From IMG/VR virus record IMGVR_UViG_3300021326_000002: a stretch of 35,178 bases of DNA; one strand, given 5' to 3'. The notes beneath the pieces were generated by a model. It was given only the letters and a program-made list of their open reading frames with translations, was not told the DNA's origin and did no database searches. Origin of the DNA: a virus. A program made the position numbers and the translations under genes. The first letter of the stretch is position 1. Every line of letters starts with the position of its first letter. Below are positions 3,504 to 35,178 of the stretch, piece by piece.

Positions 3504-4112
3504 TTAAATAAGTGTCATTGCTATAAGCTGCTTGCGGCGACGTTCGTACTCCAGCCGTTCAAAGTCCTTTGCGCGCTCCGCTTCAAAAGACTTTCGCGCC
3601 GTTAGCGACGTTTCCTCATACGCGGGTATATCAACCGCCGAAACGTCGTATAGCTTTTTTATTCTTGTTACTTTACGGGTGTGTGTTTCCGGGTCGTACT
3701 CCTCGCCGTCGGGCTCGACAACCGTAAAAGCAAAAGACATTTTGTCAATATATCCGCCGCGTATTTCTTCGTAGAGCTTGCGCCCCTCTTCCGTGCCGGA
3801 TAGATCGGCGGTTATATCAAGCCCGCCGTTGCTAAAATCAAGTTTAAGGGTCTTGTTTTTCAGCCTTGCAACAACCTTGCCACTGTGATTATAATTCATA
3901 ATCACGTCGGACATATCGCAATTTATGAACGCGTTGCGGTCTATGACCTCGTAATACTTTATACCGTCCATTTCAAAAAGGCACGTCGGACTATCAAAGA
4001 CAACTGCACGCCCCTTGACCTGATAGGCGGGCGCGGCGGCGTCGTTCGGCAATGCTTCAACGTTTGCAAATGCGCGGTATTCTCTTTGATTTGGCTTAAA
4101 TGGCATTGTCAT
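3504..4112 (-). CDS. Prohead maturation protease, HK97 family (202 aa)
   Basis: Portal-protease-capsid order. Start overlaps the portal gene end by 17 nt; an alternative ATG lies at 4106. Confidence 0.8.
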   Translation of the reverse strand: MTMPFKPNQREYRAFANVEALPNDAAAPAYQVKGRAVVFDSPTCLFEMDGIKYYEVIDRNAFINCDMSDVIMNYNHSGKVVARLKNKTLKLDFSNGGLDITADLSGTEEGRKLYEEIRGGYIDKMSFAFTVVEPDGEEYDPETHTRKVTRIKKLYDVSAVDIPAYEETSLTARKSFEAERAKDFERLEYERRRKQLIAMTLI

Positions 4113-5358
4113 TTCCCTCTCCCTCCGTTTCTTCTCCGCTATCTTGCGGGGCTTTGTCGCTTGTGTCGCCTAACTGGTATTCGTCGGCTCGATCAGCGTT
4201 CACCATGTTCAACGTTTGAACACGCCTTGCGCCCTCTGCTCCGCCCAGCGGCGACATATTGTAAGCAAGCAGCACATTGTCAACCGTAACCGCGCCAATA
4301 TCCGCAAGAAATTTCAAAGCGGCGGTTTTGTCGGATAGCTTTTCGTTCTGCAAGCTGTTGCCCTCGAATATTATTTCGTTTCCGTAACCGAATTCGCGCC
4401 CGGAAAAAAGCGCGTTTGTAAATGCTTGTGATAGCTGTTCGTAAAACGGCGCGATCTCGCCGTTATAAAACGCGCTTGCCTGTTCGGGGCTTTCCTTGTT
4501 CTGCACAATAGCCTCATTCACGCCGAAATAGTCGTATATTTCGCCCTTGACATATTCAAGCTGCCCTGTCGGTATCGGCGTTTGCTTGTCGTTTATCGGC
4601 GTGTATTCGTACTTATTGTCGGTAACAATAACGCCCGCGCCGTTGTTTTCCATTCGCAAGTTATCGCGGATAAATTCATCACGGCGGCGGTTTAAGTCCT
4701 CGGCTTTGGTACTGGACGCAACTTTCAGTATGCCGCGTATTACCGAAACAAGCTCGGCAAGTTTCCCCATGCTCTGATTAAACGTGTCAGCCGTTTGCAG
4801 TACGGGCGTGATCGGCTTGTTGCTGTCGCCGAATATGTCGTTATTGTTGTTATGCCTGCTTATATGAATTAGATCGGCATACGGGCAAGTGTAGACATTG
4901 CCCGTTGAAAAACGCATTTTGCAAAACAGTTCCCCGCCGACGCTTACAAGCTCTATTGCATAGGCGTTGACGTTGTAGAGTGCTTCAAGCTCACCCGTTA
5001 TAGTGTTCCATACGGGATATACAAAAGCGTTGTTGTATATCTTGTATTGCGTTGCTATGCGGTAATAAAACTTATATGCCGACGTGTACGGGTTTGGTCT
5101 GAATTGCAGCAGCCTATTGTATCGGCTTTTCGATACGTTGATAAAATCAACGTCGCTGCGTCTGATATGGCGCGGCTTGACCTTTGCCGCACGTCTTGCG
5201 AACGCGTCAACCGACGCCCGGACGGTGTTAATGTCGTAGGCGTTGCCCGAGAATGGCACGAACGTTGTTTGCGTCGTATTTAGCAAGGTGTATTGTGTTG
5301 CGGTCTGTATCGTCTTATCCTTGCCGAATATAGTTTGAAAAAGTCCGCGCTTTCGCAT
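4096..5358 (-). CDS. Portal protein, HK97 family (420 aa)
   Basis: Follows TerL. Size and acidic C-terminal tail (DSGEETEGEGNDN) are typical of portal proteins. Confidence 0.85.
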   Translation of the reverse strand: MRKRGLFQTIFGKDKTIQTATQYTLLNTTQTTFVPFSGNAYDINTVRASVDAFARRAAKVKPRHIRRSDVDFINVSKSRYNRLLQFRPNPYTSAYKFYYRIATQYKIYNNAFVYPVWNTITGELEALYNVNAYAIELVSVGGELFCKMRFSTGNVYTCPYADLIHISRHNNNNDIFGDSNKPITPVLQTADTFNQSMGKLAELVSVIRGILKVASSTKAEDLNRRRDEFIRDNLRMENNGAGVIVTDNKYEYTPINDKQTPIPTGQLEYVKGEIYDYFGVNEAIVQNKESPEQASAFYNGEIAPFYEQLSQAFTNALFSGREFGYGNEIIFEGNSLQNEKLSDKTAALKFLADIGAVTVDNVLLAYNMSPLGGAEGARRVQTLNMVNADRADEYQLGDTSDKAPQDSGEETEGEGNDNAI

Positions 5359-19073: not shown

Positions 19074-20684
19074 ATGGCAACAAAGAATGACGATAAATTG
19101 ATAACGGGCTACATATACGCCCGCTATTCCCCCGGACCGCAACAAACCGAGGCAAGTATCGAGGGGCAAGTCCGCGAATGCAAGGAATATGCGGACCGTA
19201 ACGGCATACGCATTATAAACGTATATTCAGATAGCAAGCAGACGGGGCGCAATGACAAGCGAGCGGGCTTTCAACAAATGCTCCGTGATTGCAAGCGAGG
19301 CGGCGTGTCCGTCGTGCTGGTATGGAAATTAGACCGTTTCGGGCGCAATCGTGCAGAAATAGCACAAAACCGCGCTTTGCTGAAATTGTCGGGCGTCAAG
19401 GTCGTTTCCGCTATGGAGCATATACCCGAAACGCCCGAGGGCATTATCCTTGAAAGTGTCCTCGAGGGTATGGCTGAATACTATTCCGCTAACCTTGCGG
19501 AAAATGTAAAACGTGGGTTAAAAGAAAACGCCCTGCAATGCAAGGCGAACGGGGCGGGGCAAAGTTTAGGCTATGTTGTCGGTGATGATCGGCGGTACAA
19601 GATAGAGCCGAGCGAGGCGGCTATCGTCAAGCGGATATTTACCGAATACGACGACGGCGCAAAGATCGCGGACATTTGGCGCGGGCTTGTGGCTGCCGGG
19701 GTAAAGACAAAACGCGGCAAAGAGTTTACACAATACGGGATAGCGCGTATTTTAAGCAACCGTGCGTATATAGGCGAATACCGATACGGCGACATTGTAA
19801 CGCCCGGCGGTATGCCCCGCATTATTGACGACGATCTATTTGAACGCGTGCAGGCGCGACGGAATGCGGGCAAATCCGCGCCGACGCGGCGGAGTACAAG
19901 CTGTGACGTTGATTTTCTGCTTACGGGTAAGTGCGTTTGCGGCTGCTGTAAAGGCACAATGCGCGGCACGTCGGGAACGGGCAAAAGCGGGCATAAGTTC
20001 TATTATTACGCTTGCCACAACAAAATATACAAGCACGCTAAATGTACCAAAAAGAACGTTAATAAAGAATGGCTCGAGGGCGAGGTTACGCGCTTGACCG
20101 TCGAATATATCTTGACCGACGAAATAATAGACTTTATCGCCGAAAAGGTCATAGAGGTGCAGGTTGCCGAACAAGCGGACAAATCAATGTTACAATACTA
20201 TGAAAACGAATTAAAGGAAACGCAACGCGCCTTGAATAACATTGTAAAGGCTATCGAGGACGGGCTTGTAACGTCCAGCACAAAAGCCCGCTTGTTTGAG
20301 TTAGAGGAACGCAAAGCCGCGTTAGAAATCAACATTGAAAAAGAGAAAATACAATACCCGCCCCTCGACAAAATGCAAGTTGTGTATTTCTTGCAGCGCT
20401 TCAAGGGCGGCTCGGTTGATGATAAGGAATACCAACGGCAAATAATAGACCTGTTCGTCAATCGCGTGATCGTGTACGACGACAAGATCACTATTACATA
20501 CAACGTCAGCGGCGAACACAACGAATTGACCGCCGATATTATAGAAAAGGCTGCAAATTCGGCGGAGTCGGGGTGTTCGACTAAATACACGTCAAGTCCA
20601 TCATTTGCAGAAAAGTCGAACACTGTTACAATATTCTTTGTCGGTGGACTTTTCGGAATAACCGTAAAAACCCGCAAGGCGTAA
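19074..20684 (+). CDS. int: Large serine recombinase (integrase) (536 aa)
   Basis: Resolvase-type N-terminus YIYARYSPGPQQTEASIEGQ...VLVWKLDRFGRN, a recombinase domain, a Cys-rich zinc ribbon (CVCGCCKG...) and a coiled coil. Confidence 0.9.
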   Translation: MATKNDDKLITGYIYARYSPGPQQTEASIEGQVRECKEYADRNGIRIINVYSDSKQTGRNDKRAGFQQMLRDCKRGGVSVVLVWKLDRFGRNRAEIAQNRALLKLSGVKVVSAMEHIPETPEGIILESVLEGMAEYYSANLAENVKRGLKENALQCKANGAGQSLGYVVGDDRRYKIEPSEAAIVKRIFTEYDDGAKIADIWRGLVAAGVKTKRGKEFTQYGIARILSNRAYIGEYRYGDIVTPGGMPRIIDDDLFERVQARRNAGKSAPTRRSTSCDVDFLLTGKCVCGCCKGTMRGTSGTGKSGHKFYYYACHNKIYKHAKCTKKNVNKEWLEGEVTRLTVEYILTDEIIDFIAEKVIEVQVAEQADKSMLQYYENELKETQRALNNIVKAIEDGLVTSSTKARLFELEERKAALEINIEKEKIQYPPLDKMQVVYFLQRFKGGSVDDKEYQRQIIDLFVNRVIVYDDKITITYNVSGEHNELTADIIEKAANSAESGCSTKYTSSPSFAEKSNTVTIFFVGGLFGITVKTRKA

Positions 20685-22083: not shown

Positions 22084-22239
22084 TTACGCCTCCTCGCTGC
22101 CGTCGTCGAAATCAAGCCCGGTAATGGTTTTGTATTCGTCGGCGGTTATCCAGCCTTTGCATACCGCGTCATATACCTGTCTTATGCTCCAATAGCCTTT
22201 ATCATAGTAGCCCTTGACCTTTTCAAATTTCTTACTCAT
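22084..22239 (-). CDS. xkdX: XkdX-family small protein (51 aa); below the ORF-track size cutoff
   Basis: My translation is MSKKFEKVKGYYDKGYWSIRQVYDAVCKGWITADEYKTITGLDFDDGSEEA, the typical XkdX pattern and position upstream of the holin. Confidence 0.7.
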   Translation of the reverse strand: MSKKFEKVKGYYDKGYWSIRQVYDAVCKGWITADEYKTITGLDFDDGSEEA

Positions 22240-22534
22240 TGTCGCCGCCCTCCTTGCTGCTGTCGTCTGCCTCTTCGGCTATAATGTCGCCGTTATCCGA
22301 TACCCCCTTGAAAACGTACTCGGTGTCGTTCGCGTAGAAATGATCGCCGGGGGCTATTTCGTCGGTGATCGTGGTGTCGGTGTCGCTGTCGAGTTCAATA
22401 TCGCACATCATGGCAATATAATCGACGTTCGCCGCGTTCTTGTTGGTGGCTTCGGCAAGCGCTGCATTTTTAGCGCGCTCTCTTATCGCCTGTTCGCTTG
22501 CGGGAATAAATCCAAACATTACAATACCTCCCAT
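22232..22534 (-). CDS. Acidic 100-aa protein, a VR-less paralogue of the N-terminal domain of the second DGR target
   Basis: EIAPGDHFYANDTEYVFKGVSDNGDIIAEEAD compared with DLEPGDHFYYNDYEYVLLDVTDNGDYFAITAD in the 11102-11845 product. Confidence 0.6.
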   Translation of the reverse strand: MGGIVMFGFIPASEQAIRERAKNAALAEATNKNAANVDYIAMMCDIELDSDTDTTITDEIAPGDHFYANDTEYVFKGVSDNGDIIAEEADDSSKEGGDNE

Positions 22535-22705
22535 AAATTATAATAATAGTCTGTCATGCTTGCGATCAGCTTGTAGCAATCGCCCTTTGACGCGTGAGCA
22601 ACCCAGCTTTTGAAACATTCGTCAACGTCCTTGCGGCTCATTAACCCCGCCTTGCAGCGGGAAACAAGTTTCTTTAGCTTTCGACGTTCACGCGTTACCT
22701 TTTTT
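22519..22705 (-). CDS. RT C-terminal (thumb-like) segment, readable only in the +1 frame after the A6 run at 22700-22705
   Basis: My translation is KKVTRERRKLKKLVSRCKAGLMSRKDVDECFKSWVAHASKGDCYKLIASMTDYYYNLWEVL, with its stop at 22519-22521. It would restore an RT of about 350 aa. Confidence 0.6.
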
Positions 22706-23572
22706 AGGCAATACGCGCATTACCACTTTACCCGAGGGCGTCAGCCTAAAACTAAAGCCCATAAAATGTAACGGTTGTGTTATCGGGAAAATGTGCGTTT
22801 TCTTCTTACTCAACTGCAAGCCGAGCGCGGCTAAGTGGTTTTTGATTTGTTCACGGCAAGCCCGCAAATATTCTTTGTCGGGGTGTATCAAAATAAAATC
22901 GTCCATATATCGCACATAGCCTTTTATGTGCAAGGCTTCTTTTATATAATGGTCGAGGTCGTCGAGGACGGCTAATTGTATAAGCTGCGTTACTTGTGAG
23001 CCGAGCCCCATACCCTTTGACGGGTCGCTGCCCTGCGTAAAACTGTTTACAATGCGTTCAACCTCGCCTAACGCCCAACTATCTTTGATGCGCTTTTGAA
23101 CGGCTGCACAAGCGACTATGTGCGGCGTGCTGCCGAAATAGTCGGATATATCGCATTTGAGCACATAGCCGTTACAACCGTATTTGCGGTAATGTCTTTG
23201 TAAATGGCATTTCAAGCGGTTTCGTGCAAAGTCTGTGCCTTTGCCGACTTGACAAGCGGCATTGTCGTAAATGAACGACTTTGAAATGTTTTCAGTTAGG
23301 TAATTATCGCATAAAGACCGTTGAAATACGCGATCTTTTATTCTTGTACTCACAATTACCCTCCTTTTCGGCTCGGTGATCGTGAATACCGTGTATTTGC
23401 CTATCTGATATTTGCCGCTTAACAATTCGTCTTTGAGCAAACAACAATTTACCAAGCCGTTTTTAACAAAGCCTGCCGCACTGTCTTTCCACATTATGCC
23501 GCGTTTACATTTGAGCATAGCCGCGTAAAGACTTTCAAACGAGCATACCGTTAATTTTACATTATCATTCAT
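22688..23572 (-). CDS. DGR reverse transcriptase, main ORF (294 aa as sequenced; apparently truncated by a frameshift)
   Basis: Motifs KRRVIVSTRIKDRVFQ, DISDYFGS, GLGSQVTQL (DGR-type (I/L)GxxxSQ-like) and YMDDFILIH. Confidence 0.85.
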   Translation of the reverse strand: MNDNVKLTVCSFESLYAAMLKCKRGIMWKDSAAGFVKNGLVNCCLLKDELLSGKYQIGKYTVFTITEPKRRVIVSTRIKDRVFQRSLCDNYLTENISKSFIYDNAACQVGKGTDFARNRLKCHLQRHYRKYGCNGYVLKCDISDYFGSTPHIVACAAVQKRIKDSWALGEVERIVNSFTQGSDPSKGMGLGSQVTQLIQLAVLDDLDHYIKEALHIKGYVRYMDDFILIHPDKEYLRACREQIKNHLAALGLQLSKKKTHIFPITQPLHFMGFSFRLTPSGKVVMRVLPKKGNA

Positions 23573-23728: not shown

Positions 23729-23845
23729 CACAATCCGGGGCGACGCCGTTACTGTTCGTCGCGTTGTTGTTGTTGAGCGCCCCCGACGGGTTGACGTTGC
23801 GGACGTTGTTCGCGTTGCCGACGTTCGGGGAACGCAACCACCAAT
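23729..23845 (-). repeat. DGR template repeat (TR), 117 nt, 28 adenines on the sense strand
   Basis: Rich in AAC codons in the VR reading frame (NVGNANNVRNVNPSGALNNNNATNSNG). Identical to VR1 and VR2 at every non-adenine position. Confidence 0.9.
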
Positions 23846-23860
23846 GATAGCGTTTTACAA

Positions 23861-24280
23861 TTATTGCCCTGCTGCTTTGTCGTGCTTCTCGATCTCGGCT
23901 TTACGCCAATTCCTGATTAGGTTTTGCACGTCGTATATAAGCCGCGTCCAATGTTCAACGCGTGCGGTTTCAAGGCTATATGTGCGGTATGCAATATCAA
24001 CCATACTTAACAAAGCGTATGTTTCGGCGAGTGCCTGCGTCTGATAGCGCTTTCTTAATATGTAGTCTGTATCGTCCCGCACAAATACGGAATTAGCCAT
24101 ATTAACGCCGTTGTTGATATTCATTGCACTTTCGACAATCTTACTTGTCAAGCACCAACGGTAACGTTTAGGGAACGTCTTTTCGTTCGCGCAAATCTTC
24201 AACGTATATTCCGCAAGGTCGCGGGCTTTTGTGATAACTACAAGTTTACCCTCGCTTTGCTTTGATTTTACAACCGACAT
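23861..24280 (-). CDS. avd: Accessory variability determinant (Avd), four-helix-bundle protein (139 aa)
   Basis: Size, basic character and the FPKRYRWCLTSKIVESAMNINNGVNMAN motif. Located between the target gene and the TR. Confidence 0.8.
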   Translation of the reverse strand: MSVVKSKQSEGKLVVITKARDLAEYTLKICANEKTFPKRYRWCLTSKIVESAMNINNGVNMANSVFVRDDTDYILRKRYQTQALAETYALLSMVDIAYRTYSLETARVEHWTRLIYDVQNLIRNWRKAEIEKHDKAAGQ

Positions 24281-24319: not shown

Positions 24320-25732
24320 TTAGATGATTACACAAGCCGGGGCGACGCCGAAACTGTACGTCGCGACGTTGCTGTTGAGCGCCCCCGACGGGATGACGCT
24401 GCGGACGACGTACGCGTTGCCGACGAACGGGGAACGCAACCACCAATATTTAGCCGCCCCGGCGCGATACTTGATACGGTTAGTGTCTGCCCCCGTACCC
24501 GCTGCCGCAAGGTCTGAATAATTGGAATAGTACGCGTATGCCTTGCCCTCGCCGCCTGCGATCTCGTTACCCGTGTACGCCTCTGTACGCGAAATCAAGA
24601 ACACTTTTTCGTCGGTTTCCACCGAGCCGCCGCCGTCCGAAACGTTGTTCAGCGCGGTTACTTTCTTAACCTTACCCAGCACGGCGACGAATTCGGGGTC
24701 AACGCCAAACAAAAAGCCTGCTGTTGTTGCAGCCCAAGAGGGCGGACGATCAAACTTTGTCTGCGGCGTCCATACCGAGCCCGCCGCCTTGCTGCTGTTG
24801 ATATACTGCCGCATAGCACTTTCAACGTAGTTGTTTGAACCGTAGCGGACGCGCTGAATACTGTTGATGTTGTTAGCTGCGTCCCCTGCGGTTGTAAGCT
24901 GCCCGAGGTTAGTTCCTGTTGTGCCGGACGATACGGGCACACTTTCAATAGCTGTTGTTGCAGAGGCAGACGCCCAGCTTGATACTTTTGCGGCGCTTGC
25001 CTGCGCATTGTAGCCCCAAGAGAACGTAAGCACGCCCTTTGCTGGTACGTCCTGCGTCAGCGTAAACTGATAGCCCGTGTCTTTGTAAGTGTTATATGTT
25101 GCGTCATACGTCGGGTCTATCGTAAAATAGTAATTTCCTGCAACAAGCCCGTTTTCTGCGTAGTAGAACGCCTCGGCGGCGTCATACTGTAACTCAGCTA
25201 TGCAGTCGTGCAGCTGCAATGTCAAGCTGTGTTCAAACTGTGTGTCGCTCGGTGCGTCATGATCTATGCCGATAACGTCAAATGTCAGCTTTGCGGCGGT
25301 TTCGTGGACTATAACCGCGTCGCCGTGTGCAGGCGTTCCCGTAACGGTTATGCCGTATGCTGCAAGCTGTACGGGCGCGTCGTTGTAGTGCCATTCTGCG
25401 CCGTTGTAAACGAATTCATAGTCGCCGCCGTGTACAACGCCGACGGCTGCTATAAACGCGTCAGCGTTGACCGTAGCCGCCGTAATGCCCGCGCTGGTGT
25501 CGGGGTCTGTGTTGCCGACGGTTGCATTTATCGCGGTTTCCTTTTCGGCTATGATCTGATCGCCGATATGGAAAAAGTGCGACGCAAGCCCCGCCCTTAC
25601 GATCGCCTGCACGTCCTTAAAGCTGGTGATGTTGTAGCCGCCCGTATTGGCTGCGATCGCTGCGCACGACTTTGCGATCTGCTGCATTGTGCTGTCTTTC
25701 ACAAGGTCAATATCAATGATAGGGTCAGACAT
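24320..25732 (-). CDS. Primary DGR target: receptor-binding / tail-fibre tip protein with a C-type-lectin-like variable C-terminus (470 aa)
   Basis: Last large gene of the tail-fibre module. The C-terminus YWWLRSPFVGNAYVVRSVIPSGALNSNVATYSFGVAPACVII is encoded by VR1. Confidence 0.85.
   Translation of the reverse strand: MSDPIIDIDLVKDSTMQQIAKSCAAIAANTGGYNITSFKDVQAIVRAGLASHFFHIGDQIIAEKETAINATVGNTDPDTSAGITAATVNADAFIAAVGVVHGGDYEFVYNGAEWHYNDAPVQLAAYGITVTGTPAHGDAVIVHETAAKLTFDVIGIDHDAPSDTQFEHSLTLQLHDCIAELQYDAAEAFYYAENGLVAGNYYFTIDPTYDATYNTYKDTGYQFTLTQDVPAKGVLTFSWGYNAQASAAKVSSWASASATTAIESVPVSSGTTGTNLGQLTTAGDAANNINSIQRVRYGSNNYVESAMRQYINSSKAAGSVWTPQTKFDRPPSWAATTAGFLFGVDPEFVAVLGKVKKVTALNNVSDGGGSVETDEKVFLISRTEAYTGNEIAGGEGKAYAYYSNYSDLAAAGTGADTNRIKYRAGAAKYWWLRSPFVGNAYVVRSVIPSGALNSNVATYSFGVAPACVII
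24331..24447 (-). repeat. DGR variable repeat 1 (VR1), 117 nt
   Basis: 14 mismatches to the TR, all at TR adenines (14 of 28). The other 89 positions are identical. Confidence 0.9.
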
Positions 25733-27203: not shown

Positions 27204-30200
27204 TCAAACCGCCCTTTCTGCTTCAAGTGCTGTTATACGCCCCTCGAGGTGCTTGACATAAGCAAGCAGGGGCGAAATAAATTCTTCGTACCTTAACGCG
27301 TATTCGCTGCCGTCGCCACCCACGTCAACAAATGCCGCAAATTCCGACGTGTCAATGCCTGCTGCCGTCATAGCTTGCAGGACGTTTTGAGCGATAAAGC
27401 CCGTATGTGTGCGCCCCGACAAAGCTATATCGGCGTTGTATCGGAATGATACGGGGTCAATTGCCTTTATCATTTGCAAATACTTGTCCGCAAGCGGCGT
27501 TATATCCTGCTTGTGTCGGCTGTCGGACGATACCGCAACGGGGCTGCCGTTGGCGTAGATGTTCGAGCCGACGAGCTTCAAGGGGAGTTGATTCATACCT
27601 ACATATAAAGCATCGTTGTTTACCCACCTAAACGCAATTGTACCTGTGCAAGTTATGCCGTAGCCGTCGTCAACATCGACGTATCCGCCCCGTACATATA
27701 CGCTTGCGTTTTCATGCCACGTTGGCGCATAGTGATATGTTGTTCTATGGTGCTTTATGACGCCGCCGCCGTCTAAGTGTATATCGCCGCCAGCGTTGAT
27801 ATACAACGGGCAAGAGTTGACGCCAATTCCAAGCCATAAGCCCGAATTTGACACGCCCCCGTCGCTGTCGGCATATCTTAACCCGATATTGCCGCCCCAT
27901 GCAACACCTACATTATTGATAAAATTTACACTCGATCTGAATTGACCTGCAAACTTAACGCTATCAACAAAATAGTGTCTGCAATCAAACTGATCGTACC
28001 CGTCGCCGTCAAGGCTCATGTAATAATAGCCGTTAATTGTATTGTTCATGGCGCGCCCGAACATTAGTCCGTGATAATTGGTTGACGCTAAAAAGCCAGT
28101 TCGTGTTAAACTGCCTTGATGTACAGGGACAATAACTGATACTCTGCTGTTGTCGTAATAGGTTTCTATCTGTCCGCTTGTCATCTTCGTTCTATACCCT
28201 GTCGTGCCGCCCGAGGTTACACTACCCGTCATCGTAGCATTTGACATTGTAGCATTTCCGTTTGCGTCAAGCCTGAAATTGCCCGTTGTAATGATAAGCC
28301 GCCCGGCTGTTAGCGATATTGTGTCGGAGCTTTGGTTGATCTCTGATACAACGTCGCCGCTTGATACTTTAAGGCTTATATTATTAGCGTTCTGCGTGAT
28401 CTGCGTTTGCAGCTTGTTTGTAATAAGCGATAATGTTTTCTGATAGACCCACGACGAGCCGTTAGACAAGTACAAATAACCGTTATTCTGATTGAGGTAA
28501 TATTTGCCGTTATTGCTTGCGGCTGCATATCCTGCCGCGGCTGGTGTGCCGTATCCGTATAAATTCACGGTGTCGCTTGATGTGTCGTACTTGCTTTGTG
28601 CCTTACTTACGGTCGATAATATGCCGTTTTCGGAAACGCTTATGCGGCTGTCGGTTTCGGTTTTGGTGTAATAGTCGTTGCTTAACTTTGTATTAAAGCT
28701 AAGTGTCAAGCCGTTTGCGCTTGTGGTGATCGCTGTGTCGGTTTCTGTTTTGGTGTAGTAGCCGCCGAGCTTATCGTTAGTATAATCGTTAGCGTCAGTT
28801 ATAGCCCCGTCTATCAAATTCCCTGTTTCGGTCTTTGTGTAGACTTGCAGCATAATACTATTTGCGCTTGCGGTTATTTGGCTGTTCGTTTCGGTTTTAG
28901 TATAATACCCTGTCAATTTGTTGTCGGTGTAGTCGTTAGCGTCGTCTATTGCGTCGCTTACCGCGTTGCTTATCTGTGTGTTGGTCTGTGTTTTGGTGTA
29001 GACTTGCAGCATTATATTATTAGCGCTTACCGAAATTTTACTATCCGTTTCAGACTTTGTGTAATAGCCGCCTAACTGTGCGTCGGTGTAGTCGTTAGCG
29101 TCACTTACTGCGCCGTCAATCAAATTACCCGTTTCGGTCTTTGTATAGACTTGCAGCATTATATTGTCCGCCGTCTGCTGTATCAGCGTTTGCGAACGTG
29201 TTTCCGACGCGCTTATAGCGTCGGTGTAGCTGTTTGTAATGCTGCTGCGCAATTCTTCATCAGCGACGGAGAATTCTTGTTCAACGGTTTCTTGTGCGCC
29301 GCTTATGGCGTCGGTGATCTGCTGCTTAAAGCCTGCTGAAATGGCGTTAGCCTGCACGCTGTCAGCGCGTAGCAATGCGCCGTTAAGTGTACCCGCTGTT
29401 ATGAAATCGGCTACAATAGCGCCGTTCATAGTCATTGCAAGCCCGTATGTGCCATTATAACCCGTTGACGAATAGCCAAGCCCCGCCGAGTTCCAGCGCC
29501 ACACATGGACGGCGGTTTCTATGTCGGGCGTGTCCATTATCAAAATTTCCTGTGGGTGCTCTGCGGGGTGCAATACCACATAGCCGCCCGAATTGCCCGT
29601 TATAAGCGCGGTCGCTTCGTCAATAGCCTGTCGCCATTCTGCCGTAGCATTTGCAAATCCCTCGCGCACAACGGTTGCAAGGTCGTTCAACGCCTTTTCC
29701 TGTTCGAGCACGGTATCGGCAAAGCTGCTGCGTGCCTCGCCGAGTTCGACGCTTTTATATTTTTCGTTCAAGGTGTCGTAAACTGTCTTAATGACCTTTG
29801 CTTTTGTGGATATACCCAGCTTGACAAAACGTACTGTTACAACATCGCAAAGCTGTACGCGTTCGAGGGGCGCTATGTCCTTGTATTCTTCGGTTTGCCA
29901 TAAGGATATAAACGACGCTTGTATATTTACTTTGGGCGTTCCGAGTTCTTCGTGCGCCGCAATATACGCCGTTGCCTTGTTCCTTAAAGCCTGCTCGGTA
30001 ATTTCTTCGTTATCCCCGAATGTGTCCGACAAATTGATTATTGCCGCCTTTTGGTGTCCGACATTGCCCGCGATCGTAAGCGGTAATACCTTTTCTTCGA
30101 GCGTTACAACAATGTCGCTGCTTTCGGTGTTACCGTTCGCGTCGGTGGTTTCCTCGGTGTATATAGCATACGGGAATATATGTGTATAGGTTTCTGTTAT

Positions 30201-30806
30201 GTTGCGTTCCTGCTGAATGTCGGTCAAGTTCTTGCCGTATTCGATCGTAACGCCGCGATCTGCTCCCCTGTGGGCGTGCAGCTTTATAACGTAATTGTCA
30301 AATTCATATTCGCCGCCCCAAACGTCTAATACGCTCCCCTGCTGTCCGCCGAGAACGGCACGCAAGGAACACGGCTCGGCAATGTCAATGCTGTTCAGCG
30401 TCGAAATGTCACTCCACGCCGTAAAGCTGCTTTCAAATGCGCCTGCGTTTATAGCTCTGTTGATCGCTGCTTGTGCCGTGGTTGACTTTGCGGCAAGTGC
30501 AACAAGCGGTATGCCGTTAGCGTCGTATGATATATGTTCGGCGTTATACGTCACAATGCCGTCTATCGGCTTGCTATGCGCGTATATGCGGAAAAGCTGC
30601 AAGGTGCTTGTTTCGTTCGCCTTTGCCTTTATCACGTCGCCCTCGTCAATATCCGAATAGTGCAAGCCCGTTGCAGGATATTCAAACGTCATTTCGTAAG
30701 CGCCGTTACGTTCCTCGGTAACGTCACAAGATATAATATCGGTCAGAAATCCCGCGCCGTTGCGGGTGTAGTTTGTGTCGTCCTTTTTATAAAGAATTGG
30801 TATCAT
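27204..30806 (-). CDS. Tail-associated lysin-like (Tal) protein fused to a tail fibre with a C-terminal S74-type intramolecular chaperone (about 1200 aa)
   Basis: N-terminal prophage-tail motifs (NGAGFLTD...CDVTEERNGAYEMTFEYP), central roughly 50-aa repeats, and C-terminal SDSRHKQDI...FIAQNV...YALRYEEF. ATG at 30806 (ATGA overlap with Dit, GAGGTG RBS) preferred to the GTG at 30818. Confidence 0.8.
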   Translation of the reverse strand: MIPILYKKDDTNYTRNGAGFLTDIISCDVTEERNGAYEMTFEYPATGLHYSDIDEGDVIKAKANETSTLQLFRIYAHSKPIDGIVTYNAEHISYDANGIPLVALAAKSTTAQAAINRAINAGAFESSFTAWSDISTLNSIDIAEPCSLRAVLGGQQGSVLDVWGGEYEFDNYVIKLHAHRGADRGVTIEYGKNLTDIQQERNITETYTHIFPYAIYTEETTDANGNTESSDIVVTLEEKVLPLTIAGNVGHQKAAIINLSDTFGDNEEITEQALRNKATAYIAAHEELGTPKVNIQASFISLWQTEEYKDIAPLERVQLCDVVTVRFVKLGISTKAKVIKTVYDTLNEKYKSVELGEARSSFADTVLEQEKALNDLATVVREGFANATAEWRQAIDEATALITGNSGGYVVLHPAEHPQEILIMDTPDIETAVHVWRWNSAGLGYSSTGYNGTYGLAMTMNGAIVADFITAGTLNGALLRADSVQANAISAGFKQQITDAISGAQETVEQEFSVADEELRSSITNSYTDAISASETRSQTLIQQTADNIMLQVYTKTETGNLIDGAVSDANDYTDAQLGGYYTKSETDSKISVSANNIMLQVYTKTQTNTQISNAVSDAIDDANDYTDNKLTGYYTKTETNSQITASANSIMLQVYTKTETGNLIDGAITDANDYTNDKLGGYYTKTETDTAITTSANGLTLSFNTKLSNDYYTKTETDSRISVSENGILSTVSKAQSKYDTSSDTVNLYGYGTPAAAGYAAASNNGKYYLNQNNGYLYLSNGSSWVYQKTLSLITNKLQTQITQNANNISLKVSSGDVVSEINQSSDTISLTAGRLIITTGNFRLDANGNATMSNATMTGSVTSGGTTGYRTKMTSGQIETYYDNSRVSVIVPVHQGSLTRTGFLASTNYHGLMFGRAMNNTINGYYYMSLDGDGYDQFDCRHYFVDSVKFAGQFRSSVNFINNVGVAWGGNIGLRYADSDGGVSNSGLWLGIGVNSCPLYINAGGDIHLDGGGVIKHHRTTYHYAPTWHENASVYVRGGYVDVDDGYGITCTGTIAFRWVNNDALYVGMNQLPLKLVGSNIYANGSPVAVSSDSRHKQDITPLADKYLQMIKAIDPVSFRYNADIALSGRTHTGFIAQNVLQAMTAAGIDTSEFAAFVDVGGDGSEYALRYEEFISPLLAYVKHLEGRITALEAERAV

Positions 30807-31528
30807 ATCGTACACCACCTCGGCACAATTTCGGCTTTTGTCGCGTTGCCTGTTATCGTTATAGTGTTAGCCCCCGGCGCAAACGTCGGGAACGTGTCGC
30901 CCGTCATGATGTTATTAAGGGGTGTTAAGCCCTTGTATGCGTTCATGATCTCGCTGTCTATTTCCACATACCCCGAAACGCCCGTAAATGTGTTTGTAAC
31001 TGCATTTACTGATAGCGTTATATTACCGTTGCCGTATATTCTTATGTACGGCGCTGCGGTCAGCTTCTCGGGGTTATATATCTGTGTGCTTGATTGACGT
31101 ATGGTTATTGTCTTTTGTCCGTCGAATGAATAGCGGTACGGCTTGCAATTGAACGTCAAGGACATTTCGCCGTAGTTTGTGAGTTCTTCGGCAATATCGA
31201 CGCCGCCCTCTACCGCTGCATAGCGGAAATATCGCGGGTTGTAACTATCCCATAGCACATTATATCCGCCGCCGACGGATAACCAATCTTTTATACTGTC
31301 GGCAAGATCGCTGAATGTTCGCGCGTCTTTTTTCAGTAATGCAAGTTCGTAAGGTATCGAAACATTCTTGTATCGCCCGTTGTCTTGTATCAAATCGCCG
31401 TTCCGCCCGGGAACGCTAACGAATTCAAAGTCGCGCTCGGCGGCGTTGTATGTGCCTTTGCTTTTGATATACAAAGAGAATTCAAGGGAGTTTTTTCCCT
31501 TGTAGTAAAGATACGGTAATCTTTGCAT
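30803..31528 (-). CDS. Distal tail protein (Dit) (241 aa)
   Basis: Located between the tape measure and Tal. Contains VSVPGRNGDL, typical of the siphovirus tail family. Confidence 0.75.
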   Translation of the reverse strand: MQRLPYLYYKGKNSLEFSLYIKSKGTYNAAERDFEFVSVPGRNGDLIQDNGRYKNVSIPYELALLKKDARTFSDLADSIKDWLSVGGGYNVLWDSYNPRYFRYAAVEGGVDIAEELTNYGEMSLTFNCKPYRYSFDGQKTITIRQSSTQIYNPEKLTAAPYIRIYGNGNITLSVNAVTNTFTGVSGYVEIDSEIMNAYKGLTPLNNIMTGDTFPTFAPGANTITITGNATKAEIVPRWCTI

Positions 31529-34383
31529 TATCCGAATACAACTCCCTTTCGTCTTATTTTGCTTTCGATCTTATACATGATAAGGTCTATAAAGTCGTCA
31601 ATGTCCTTTTCGGTCTTGTTTTCTATCTTGTCGATATTAACCGAAACGTCAATGTTAATGCTCGGCTTGCCCGCGTCGGTCGTCGGCACTACAATTTCGC
31701 GTACCGCCTGCCGTATGTAGTCAAGTAATACGCTTATAGGTGCGACGGCTTCCTCGCCTGCCTCGCCGCCTACCTTTGCCGTGCCTGCTTCGGGGTCAAT
31801 GTCAAATACGGTCGGCTTTTTCATTACCGCGCCTTTTGCGTACCATTCAATACCCAGCGACGGGATAGAGCCCTCGAGCAAGTCACCCAAGCTCCAGCCG
31901 GACGGGCTAATAGCAAAGTGCGGTAATTTGATTTGCGGCAACGATACATTGAAATTGAAAAATGACTTTATTTTGTCAATGGCATTTTTTACAACGTTTC
32001 GCACATTGTCGAAAATGTTTGTAAACGTCTGCTTGATATTGTTCAAGCGGTTTGTTACGGTGTTTTTGACGTTGTCAAGCCCGCTTGTAATGGTTGTTTT
32101 TATGGCGTTTATTATATTGCTTACTTTGTTTTTGATGTTGTCAAAAATACTTGTAAACTTCTGCTTGATATTGTCAAGGACATTTGAAACAACATTCTTG
32201 ATAGCGTTTAAGCCGTTAGTAAATATCTGCTTGTAAAAATTAAAGATATTCCCGAAAAACTGCTTAATGTCGTTAAAGATTTTTGTTACAATGTCCTTTG
32301 CCTTATTAAACGCCTCGTCCCAATTGCCTAAAAAGACGTCAAGTATTATTTCGACGATCTTATTAAACAATTCAACGGCTTTTTCATAATAGCCCTTTAA
32401 GGTGTCGGCGCAAAAGGCTAAAAACGTCATAATACCGTCTATCGCGGGTGTAAGTATGCTTACAACCGTTTCGACGATCTCCATTATAAACGCTATCAGT
32501 TCGGGCAAAATAGCGCTTATCAAGTCCATAAGCGGCGTTATCAGAATTAACAGAATGTCTAATAACGGCTGGATAACCGGCAATAGCTGCATTAACAAGT
32601 CTGTAAGTATCGGCAATACGCTTTCAATTATCTGCGTAAGCAGCGGCATACATTCTTGTATTAGCTGAATGATAACGGGTAATATTGCGTTTACTATTTC
32701 GGTTATCGTCGGCATTAACGCGTCGATAAGCTGCACGATCACGGGCAATATAGCCTCGATAATCTGCATAGCAAGCGGCAATATTGTATTTATCAAGTCG
32801 ATAAGTACGGGCAATACCGCGTCAATTATCTTTGTAAGCAGGGGCAAAACGGACTTGATAATGCTAACGAGCGACGGCAACAACGTTTTTATAAGGCGTG
32901 TTACGATCGGTAATATAGCGTTTATCAAATCGACAATGACGGGCAATACCGCGTCTATTATGTCGGTCAGTATCGGCAATATTTCCTCGATAACATCTAC
33001 CAATAGCGGCAAGATAGTTTCAACCACTTTCAAAAGCGGCGGTATTATCTGCTGTATCAGCTTAACGATAACAGGCAGCACCGCAGAAATAAGGCTTTGC
33101 GATGGCGGTAATAGCGTTTGTATCAAATCAAATAGTATCGGGAATACTGTATTAGTCAGTTCGATAAGCGGCGGCAATATGCCGTCAAATACGCTTGTCA
33201 GTATTGGAATAAATCCCTCGATCAGCTTTTGAACATTCGGTAAGTTGTCGGTAATAACTTCAATAGCCTGCTCAACTATCGGTATCAATGCTGTACCGAT
33301 CTGCTGCTTGATAAGTGCAAAATTGTTTTTTAGCTTGCCGAGCTTAGCATTGAGGGTGTCGCCCATTGTTTCAAACGCCTTTTGCGTTGCACCTGCCGAG
33401 GTCTGCATTTCGCCGAGAATGTTTGCGAAATCCTCTCCGCCGTCCTTGACCAGCGTCATTGCTGCTGCGCCTGCAAGCTGCTTGTTGAACATATCTTTAA
33501 GCGTCAAGCCTGCGTTGCCTGCATAATCATTAAGCATATTAAGCACATCGGCGGTGCTTTTGCCCTCGGCTTGCAGTTCCGCAAAGCTCTTGCCGGATAT
33601 TTCGCGTAAAGCCTTATCGGCTTTTGAGCCTGTTTTTGACAGTTCGCCGAGCATAGAGTTGATCTGCGTACCTGCCTGCGCTGTTGCGACGCCGTTTTTT
33701 GTCAGTACGGCGTACTGCGTTGACAGGTCGTCCATAGCAACGTTAGCACCCGACGCAATAGGTATCGTTTGACCTAATGATGCCGCTAGTTCGTCAACGG
33801 TAGTTTTACCGAGGTTCTGCGTAGTGATAAGCATATCCGAAATGTCGGTTGCTTTGTCGGCTTCTAAGCCATACGCATTAAGGGCTGTCGTAAGTACATC
33901 AACGGCGGTTGTTGTATCAGTAAAACCGCCCTTTGCCAGCTTAACGGCATTCGTTGTAAATTCTACTGCGTCAGCTTGATCTACCGAGGCAGATATAGCC
34001 GAGTATGTCGCATCGGAAAAATCAGAAAAAGCAACACCGGTTTCGCCGGAGGCTTTTATGATCTGGTCGTAAATGCCCTGTATATCTTCTTCCGTACCCG
34101 ATAATAGCGTTTTAACTTTCGCAAACGCCGTTTCTTGTTCGGCTGCGTCAGTAGCCATTTTATAAGCAGCGCCGCCGAGGGCGGTTGCAGCCGCAACGGT
34201 CATTGTTCCCATTGTTACGGCTGCATTGCCTATAGTGCTAAATGCTTTACCAATCTTTGAGCCTGCGCTTTCGCCCTTTTTGGTCGTTTCGTCTATGCTC
34301 TTGTCGGCTTCTTTGTTGTCAATGAATATAGTTCCAAATAGCGAAAAGATATTAGCCACGGTTGCGCCCCCTATCCGCCTCAA
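31528..34383 (-). CDS. Tape measure protein (951 aa; the true start may be the GTG at 34359)
   Basis: Largest helical protein downstream of the G/T chaperones, with 21 consecutive 11-residue repeats. Confidence 0.9.
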   Translation of the reverse strand: MRRIGGATVANIFSLFGTIFIDNKEADKSIDETTKKGESAGSKIGKAFSTIGNAAVTMGTMTVAAATALGGAAYKMATDAAEQETAFAKVKTLLSGTEEDIQGIYDQIIKASGETGVAFSDFSDATYSAISASVDQADAVEFTTNAVKLAKGGFTDTTTAVDVLTTALNAYGLEADKATDISDMLITTQNLGKTTVDELAASLGQTIPIASGANVAMDDLSTQYAVLTKNGVATAQAGTQINSMLGELSKTGSKADKALREISGKSFAELQAEGKSTADVLNMLNDYAGNAGLTLKDMFNKQLAGAAAMTLVKDGGEDFANILGEMQTSAGATQKAFETMGDTLNAKLGKLKNNFALIKQQIGTALIPIVEQAIEVITDNLPNVQKLIEGFIPILTSVFDGILPPLIELTNTVFPILFDLIQTLLPPSQSLISAVLPVIVKLIQQIIPPLLKVVETILPLLVDVIEEILPILTDIIDAVLPVIVDLINAILPIVTRLIKTLLPSLVSIIKSVLPLLTKIIDAVLPVLIDLINTILPLAMQIIEAILPVIVQLIDALMPTITEIVNAILPVIIQLIQECMPLLTQIIESVLPILTDLLMQLLPVIQPLLDILLILITPLMDLISAILPELIAFIMEIVETVVSILTPAIDGIMTFLAFCADTLKGYYEKAVELFNKIVEIILDVFLGNWDEAFNKAKDIVTKIFNDIKQFFGNIFNFYKQIFTNGLNAIKNVVSNVLDNIKQKFTSIFDNIKNKVSNIINAIKTTITSGLDNVKNTVTNRLNNIKQTFTNIFDNVRNVVKNAIDKIKSFFNFNVSLPQIKLPHFAISPSGWSLGDLLEGSIPSLGIEWYAKGAVMKKPTVFDIDPEAGTAKVGGEAGEEAVAPISVLLDYIRQAVREIVVPTTDAGKPSINIDVSVNIDKIENKTEKDIDDFIDLIMYKIESKIRRKGVVFG

Positions 34384-34692: not shown

Positions 34693-35064
34693 TTAGTCTG
34701 CACGTTTCGGCTTTACCTTGTCGTGTAGAGCACGCTTGAAAAAAACCGTCATGCCCTCGTCGTGTATGATCTCGTCGAGAACGGCGAACGTGTCAAGGTC
34801 GTTAGCCTCTTCGACGGTAACGCCCTTGTAGGCTGCTGCAAGCTCGGGCAAGAAATCCGCCACGGTGTCAAGCTGCGGGAGCAGCGCGCTAATTGCCGTT
34901 ACGGCAAGTTCGCCCGCCTTTTCGGTGGTAAGCTGCGCCAGCGCGTCCTCCTTGCTCTTTGCGTCGGTGAATATGTCCGCGTCCTTTAGGGTGTCAATTA
35001 CGGGTGTGAGGTCAAGCCTGCTTGTTATTCTCAAAAGTATCTGCAAAGATTTGATATTCAGCAT
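34693..35064 (-). CDS. Tail assembly chaperone, gpG-like (123 aa)
   Basis: Position between the major tail and tape measure genes. Acidic helical protein. Confidence 0.7.
   Translation of the reverse strand: MLNIKSLQILLRITSRLDLTPVIDTLKDADIFTDAKSKEDALAQLTTEKAGELAVTAISALLPQLDTVADFLPELAAAYKGVTVEEANDLDTFAVLDEIIHDEGMTVFFKRALHDKVKPKRAD
34738..34744 (-). other. Slippery heptamer T_TTT_TTC for programmed -1 frameshifting (G-T fusion of about 237 aa)
   Basis: The sense strand reads acg gtT TTT TTC aag, in the correct phase (X_XXY_YYZ), 15 codons before the gpG stop. Confidence 0.6.
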
Positions 35065-35178
35065 AATAAATAAACTCCTTATCTATTGATTTTTATGATT
35101 TAGGTAGTGCCGCCGCCGCTTGCAGCTTTGCGCATTTCAAAAGACGATACCTCGGTAACTTCCCACAAGTCGCCGTCG
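35052..35178. repeat. Second copy of the 127-bp terminal overlap (35100-35178 duplicates the 3' end of the major tail gene)
   Basis: Identical to bases 1-127. Confidence 0.9.

Follow-up and report, generated by a model that had tools for sequence, protein, structure and literature searches.

A recent A5-to-A6 insertion that probably inactivates the DGR reverse transcriptase of a clonal temperate gut-phage lineage

DGR reverse transcriptases (RTs) that have been truncated by a frameshift, a nonsense codon or an IS insertion, and that are accompanied by clean VR/TR pairs differing at A only, have been read as recent inactivations (Schillinger et al. 2012, PMC3521204). For instance, the DiGReF examples include a frameshift in Bacteroides sp. 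9_1_42FAA and a nonsense codon in Ruminococcus gnavus ATCC 29149 (PMC3521204). A further described case is Quimbyvirus, where the DGR RT occupies three overlapping frames and recoding was considered (Benler et al. 2021, PMC8008677). The thumb of the Bordetella RT (bRT) touches the template:primer duplex, and around it runs an RNA ‘thumb ring’; these contacts are needed for cDNA synthesis, and mutation of the thumb ring lowers it (bioRxiv 10.1101/2023.10.23.563531). Slippage on A-runs has been studied elsewhere: in a Firmicute test with IS1447, slippage product was detectable only when the run had 7 A or more, runs of 0-6 A giving none (PMC6211511), and productive A-run slippage sites in other bacteria have 8-9 A (PMC1088944).

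The locus described here lies on a 35,178-nt stretch of viral DNA (IMG/VR record IMGVR_UViG_3300021326_000002), the whole of which is called the window below. The reading that we prefer, at a probability of roughly 80%, is that a genuine and recent A5-to-A6 insertion in one clonal temperate gut-phage lineage removes the thumb of the RT, most likely leaving the DGR off and its VR frozen. Positions 1-127 of the window are an exact repeat of 35052-35178, so the window is the closed circular assembly of a temperate phage genome of 35,051 bp. In the integrated copies L002, L003 and L260, identity to the window is lost at about 20597, which falls within the final ~29 codons of the gene for the large serine recombinase (ORF 19074-20684, plus strand). 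On the host side of L002 (6973-7324) the sequence goes straight into the 3′ end of a tmRNA gene (tag DNDNFAMAA), with smpB next; attB thus lies at ssrA, used here by a serine rather than a tyrosine integrase. The DGR cassette comprises, besides the RT, the following features.

24320-25732, minus strand: DGR target gene, 470 aa, with a DUF6273 C-terminal domain (Pfam E=2.5e-18), adjoining tail-fibre genes.
24331-24447, minus strand: variable repeat (VR), at the 3′ end of the target gene.
23861-24280, minus strand: Avd-like accessory gene, 139 aa, between the target gene and the TR, a conserved position.
23729-23845, minus strand: template repeat (TR), a 117-nt direct repeat 88% identical to the VR.

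Thus a TR/VR pair, a DGR-type RT beside the TR (frameshifted in the window) and a target gene carrying the VR are all present, as expected of a DGR. The VR lies within the last 40 codons of the DUF6273 target protein, a domain that is probably C-type-lectin-like as judged from the Pfam match, and the match of the 139-aa ORF to bAvd (PF22296) is weak (E=2e-4, below the gathering score). The target gene has BppU_N and Prophage_tail genes as neighbours, and the cassette is flanked by tail-fibre genes on one side and by a lysis module (XkdX, holin, GH25 lysin) and the serine recombinase on the other. All 14 of the 14 mismatches between TR and VR fall at TR adenines, which bears out the adenine-only VR divergence noted in the initial annotation. 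Across strains, the TR is identical in seven of the eight loci compared, with one base different in the remaining one (L173), and the target-protein variants have 8-10 changes each in the VR as against 3-8 elsewhere in the protein. Since the TR is near-invariant and the VRs, identical within clones, are 15-20 nt apart between strains, the DGR has been active on a between-strain timescale.

The RT gene and its surroundings in the window are arranged as follows.

22688-23572, minus strand: truncated DGR reverse transcriptase ORF, 294 aa (from the ORF list and its translation).
22700-22705, minus strand (T6 on the plus strand): A6 homopolymer, site of the one-base insertion (read from the sequence).
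22519-22699, minus strand: +1-frame continuation, matching the RT thumb, residues 292-350 of the intact protein (three helices), and TAA.
22232-22519, minus strand: downstream gene, 95 aa (from the gene tables).

The 294-aa ORF, which matches RVT_1 in Pfam (E=5e-14), ends ...MRVLPKKGNA followed by TGA (sense CCT AAA AAA GGT AAC GCG TGA), and its product consists of native residues 1-291, covering the N-terminal extension, fingers and palm with YMDD, plus an out-of-frame GNA tail. As the frameshift comes after residue 291, the whole thumb is missing from this product. From the A6 run the +1 frame is open through KKVTRERRKLKKLVSRCKAGLMSRKDVDECFKSWVAHASKGDCYKLIASMTDYYYNLWEVL (KKVTRERRKL...NLWEVL) to a stop at 22519-22521. 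Deleting one A in silico (A5) gives a protein of 350 aa, the same as in intact alleles, and a run of A8 gives 351 aa. The initial annotation had placed the RT stop at 22688 after ...RVLPKKGNA, the A6 run at 22700-22705 and the end of the +1 frame at 22519, and had expected a restored protein of about 350 aa; the coordinates are all correct and the expected length agrees with that of the A5 product. We also considered a 40-aa ORF at 22519-22641 as a separate trans-acting thumb fragment and rejected it, as its start is a mere internal Met of the intact protein.

The frameshift also changes the relation of the RT to the gene that follows it. When the RT is intact, its stop codon and the ATG of the next gene, of 95 aa, share bases (TAATG; for instance, RT 4001-5053 and next gene 5053-5340), and this stop/ATG overlap, at 22517-22521 in window coordinates, suggests translational coupling of the two. 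In the A6 allele the RT stop is 168 nt upstream of the 95-aa gene (for instance, RT end 4885 and next start 5054), and because the RT terminates that far ahead of it, expression of the 95-aa gene might also be affected.

Homology and structure both point to the +1-frame piece as the authentic end of the protein. It matches the C-terminus of the intact 350-aa alleles (P0127/L165) at 100% identity, and a search with the A5-fused protein gave 5,529 homologs, the best 120 of which are almost all of 345-390 aa with a query coverage of 94-100%, the exception being one fragment of 278 aa. In an alignment of 60 homologs the junction L-P-x-K-V-(T/S)-x-E-R-R (LPKKVTRERR type) is uninterrupted and a motif further downstream, ...CFKSWVAHASKGDCYKLI... 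(CF.SW.AHA.KGD.Y.LI), is strongly conserved. The homologs thus run on through the junction to about 350 aa; RTs that end naturally near ...LPKK, which would have made the similarity in the +1 frame coincidental, were looked for among them and were not encountered. The best PDB sequence match of the fused RT is the Bordetella DGR RT (8ub7_A, E=1e-25, query 9-343 aligned with chain 12-323), and the same structure is the best fold match found by Foldseek for the AlphaFold model of an intact allele that is 99% identical (P0001; TM 0.80/0.84 over 344 columns). The mean confidence of this model is high (pLDDT 92.4), and its C-terminus consists of helices 289-307, 313-327 and 333-348, with a pLDDT there of about 95. 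The thumb-like character proposed for this stretch in the initial annotation is therefore upheld by the intact-allele C-termini, by the 8ub7_A alignment and by the three-helix model, and the piece is, by alignment and modelling, a genuine RT C-terminus and no chance open frame.

When the run is compared across relatives, A5 is found throughout the close ones. All fetched loci with an intact RT and 85-100% identity have A5 (CCT or TCT AAA AAG GTA ACG); at 99-100% RT protein identity to the fused query, 14 of 14 such loci have A5, while all eight loci of the clone to which the window belongs have A6. Since every intact relative of 85-100% identity carries A5, the window has a one-A insertion, with A5 as the ancestral state. 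More distant relatives have GAA AAG, CAG AAA, AAG AAG or similar codons, so that the run is mostly of 2-4 A, always in frame. Comparison of 259 fetched loci with the fused RT gave one full-length HSP in 226, and only the eight members of the A6 clone are split at the A6 site; the same A-run and frame split, sought in related phages, is thus absent outside one clone among these 259 loci. Two loci unrelated to the clone, L193 (a Christensenellaceae MAG, 4001-5070) and L138 (74-1052), match the RT in two frames near residues 170-190, and may be other frameshifted DGR RTs; the coverage of L138 is just 1.4x, so error is possible there.

Wider searches served mainly to place the clade. Scans of IMG/VR and of JGI/ENA metagenome contigs with the fused protein returned relatives of at most 85% identity, which were used for the conservation survey, and the A6 clone was not among the matches in these scans. 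An exact-pattern scan of IMG/VR for A5-A7 in the context of the RT junction gave no match, and the best entry in the GenBank phage collection was an unannotated 69% DNA match. A scan of genomes pointed to hosts for distant relatives only; these were for the most part Ruminococcus and Clostridia MAGs, and the highest identity was 72%.

The A6 allele itself recurs widely. A protein collection drawn from JGI, ENA and Logan has the exact 294-aa product in 39 indexed blocks, from which 24 contigs were read, and the same allele called from Met27 (P0122, ...LPKKGNA) is found on 11 further JGI contigs. This brings the total to 35 contigs or more; three or more projects and no fewer than two assemblers are represented. 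We read eight A6 loci completely or partially (the window, L001-L003 and L256-L259), the samples being ENA ERZ27247018 and ERZ27247045 and JGI 3300023711, 3300036438, 3300036409, 3300036554 and 3300036550. Compared with the window over up to 6.9 kb, each clone locus shows one substitution or none. One of them, L001, has a k141-style name and is 35,192 nt long, or 35,051+141, as the window is 35,051+127; we infer from these lengths that the two are one 35,051-bp circle closed by two assemblers, both with A6. As the variant segregates perfectly with lineage across projects and pipelines, a pattern that random homopolymer error does not predict, A6 is best taken as a genuine, heritable and clonal allele.

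A sister lineage with the ancestral run could also be recovered. The contigs L165/L260 (ENA ERZ27247020) have A5 and an intact RT of 350 aa, and in L260 a stretch of 8,569 nt, VR included, departs from the window in the A-run alone. Because the sister is identical over this length save for the A-run, the A5-to-A6 insertion is very recent. We rejected L165 as a strictly isogenic twin of the window, since longer flanks reveal a tail-fibre gene of 98.3% identity, making it a sister lineage or a recombinant. The difference is seen between L260 1-4581 and window 28834-33425, which lie in this gene and have 57 mismatches and 14 gaps; a tail-fibre gene of 98.3% identity beside an identical 8.6 kb suggests that the receptor-binding module has recently recombined. 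This region, whose protein (Prophage_tail + Peptidase_S74) has 1249 aa in L260 and 1200 aa in the window, is mosaic.

Loss of the RT is not confined to the A6 clone. In sister strains with an A5 background we found a CAG>TAG nonsense change at codon 180 (L174/L175; Logan SRR29188412, SRR29188423) and a CAA>TAA nonsense change at codon 84 (L263; JGI 3300041765), and both alleles fall in the same 90% cluster as the A6 clone. With three independent lesions in one narrow clade, RT loss there is recurrent and tolerated.

The sequence of events that we favour is thus one in which A5 became A6 in a short homopolymer of the RT gene, most likely in a single event of replication slippage. Standard decoding would then give the 294-aa RT with N-terminal extension, fingers and palm and without the three-helix thumb, so that what the window carries would be an inactivated RT, with a heritable truncating lesion that removes the whole thumb. 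Since the thumb that is lost grips the template:primer duplex and the thumb ring in the Bordetella RT, the DGR would most likely be switched off in this lineage, with the VR frozen in its last written state; loss of RT activity in the A6 lineage is what sequence and analogy together lead us to infer. Full-length RT would be made only through rare, unprogrammed slippage on the A6 run, and such slippage, in rebuilding the exact wild-type RT, could give a leaky phenotype. It is slightly odd for a defective allele that the A6 clone is the most often sampled member of the clade, and it may owe its frequency to a successful lysogen with which it hitch-hikes, or to one source having been sampled repeatedly; the lack of SNPs across three projects hints at a shared source.

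We also looked at the VR within the clone, as adenine-site VR variation among near-identical genomes was the activity test applied to Quimbyvirus (PMC8008677). No adenine-templated VR change was found among the eight A6 loci. The single SNP of L258 is 4 nt outside the VR and at a position where the TR has T, and is thus not of the DGR type; the exact target protein of the clone is present on 23 contigs. We did not retain this stasis as evidence of RT inactivity, since the A5 clones L170-L173 are likewise identical in the VR at a similar divergence.

An unlikely alternative is that the A5/A6 tract is a slipped-strand on/off switch, freezing a good receptor-binding variant and allowing later diversification. 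Both tract lengths do occur on backgrounds that show no other difference over 8.57 kb, so that tract-length polymorphism among near-identical genomes is indeed seen (A5 in L260, A6 in the window), and two reports (PMC2831843, PMC5084427) document homopolymer tracts in coding genes as a route of phase variation in prokaryotes. Against a switch, there is no homoplasy: A6 occurs in one clone, about 10 other A5 lineages have no shifted tract, and recurrent independent switching was not seen among the loci compared. The tract is also unconserved, the relatives being mostly A2-A4, and at 5-6 nt it is short by the standards of contingency loci. Additionally, the other null alleles of the clade are irreversible nonsense changes, which points to plain decay. 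A broader proposal would have the tract turn DGR mutagenesis on and off, or dim it, as a functional switch, either through replication slippage that can be reversed or through +1 decoding at a low level that restores the exact wild-type RT; we regard this as distinctly unlikely. Were a switch real, a temperate phage could freeze a successful receptor-binding variant and retain the option to diversify, and a reversibly switching tract would be a simple regulatory layer on DGR mutagenesis, hitherto undemonstrated.

Highly unlikely, in our assessment, is that programmed +1 ribosomal frameshifting or transcriptional slippage at A6 is the normal way of producing the RT, throttling its dosage. The wild-type RT would be restored exactly if tRNA-Lys slipped by +1 on AAA AAA G or if the mRNA lacked one A, and a programmed frameshift in a DGR RT has been proposed for Quimbyvirus (PMC8008677). 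Folding of the RNA around the run (22610-22712, minus strand) predicts a small hairpin, UUGCCU / AGGUAA, with the A-run as its loop, and this 103-nt region folds slightly better than shuffled sequences; at z=-2.2 the effect is modest and we found it unconvincing as a recoding stimulator. A GC-rich hairpin (CCCGCUGCAAGGCGGGG) is also predicted, about 45 nt downstream. However, the split is confined to one clone, with the nearest relatives and more than 200 others in frame, and the A-run itself is not conserved. Inspection of the sequence revealed no stop or rare/slow codon in the A-site and no upstream Shine-Dalgarno-like stimulator, of the kind that prfB-type +1 sites have. At six A, moreover, the run is below the shortest shown to support slippage. 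In this analysis we added, as a second criterion for recoding, that the split be conserved among relatives; neither a conserved two-frame arrangement nor a slippery motif of a type and length that works was found here, and A6 as a programmed recoding site is, on these comparisons, not supported.

Least probable of all is a homopolymer sequencing or assembly error concealing a true A5 and an intact RT: though homopolymers are the classic site of indel errors and the A5 contig L165/L260, identical around the run, comes from the same ENA series (ERZ272470xx), A6 is present in the 35 or more contigs, which come from ENA, JGI and Logan and from two assemblers at the least, and follows lineage in every clone locus and every close relative, the A5 contig is of a different strain by its diverged tail-fibre region, and the window has 38 other homopolymers of at least 6 nt free of any such problem, with the 11 other listed genes of the locus essentially equal in length in A6 and A5 genomes. 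Of the three options that the initial annotation left open, recent inactivation is thus the best supported, with error very unlikely and recoding unsupported.

Recent inactivation, as the preferred reading, has some practical consequences. In curation, the RT is best marked as a frameshifted, probably non-functional allele, and neither as a recoding event nor as an error to be silently corrected, and surveys should list the DGR of the A6 lineage among the probably inactive ones. A clean natural pair is available in the A6 clone and its A5 sister, which are identical over 8.6 kb around the DGR; together with the two nonsense alleles, this pair could be used to gauge the rate of VR change with and without the RT, and the whole set of alleles could test whether RT loss is neutral or favoured in lysogens.

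Comparison with known systems places the locus as follows. The slippage sites of IS1447 (A9), Thermus dnaX (A9) and Shigella mxiE (T9) have, as here, an A/T homopolymer at the junction of overlapping frames, but their runs are of 7-9 nt or longer and conserved, whereas that of the window is of 6 nt, derived and unconserved (PMC1088944, PMC6211511). Quimbyvirus is similar in that the DGR RT of a gut phage is not contained in a single ORF. There, however, adenine-site VR variation among genomes of >95% ANI was taken as RT activity, while here the split is found in one clone, VR variation is absent from it and the nearest relatives are in frame. The bRT of Bordetella phage BPP-1 (8ub7) has the same fold, the same order of domains (N-terminal extension, fingers, palm, thumb), an Avd partner, for which there is an Avd-like ORF here, and a TR/VR pair; it differs in that identity is about 25% and in that the window allele is without a thumb through the frameshift. 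The DGRs of Schillinger et al. (2012) are alike in having an RT cut by a point indel beside an intact TR/VR pair with adenine-directed differences only. Error was left open for those cases, whereas here it is largely excluded by recurrence across assemblies, and here the ancestral in-frame sister allele has been recovered as well. By analogy with them, the A6 RT is most naturally seen as a further instance of the DGR RT inactivation already described.
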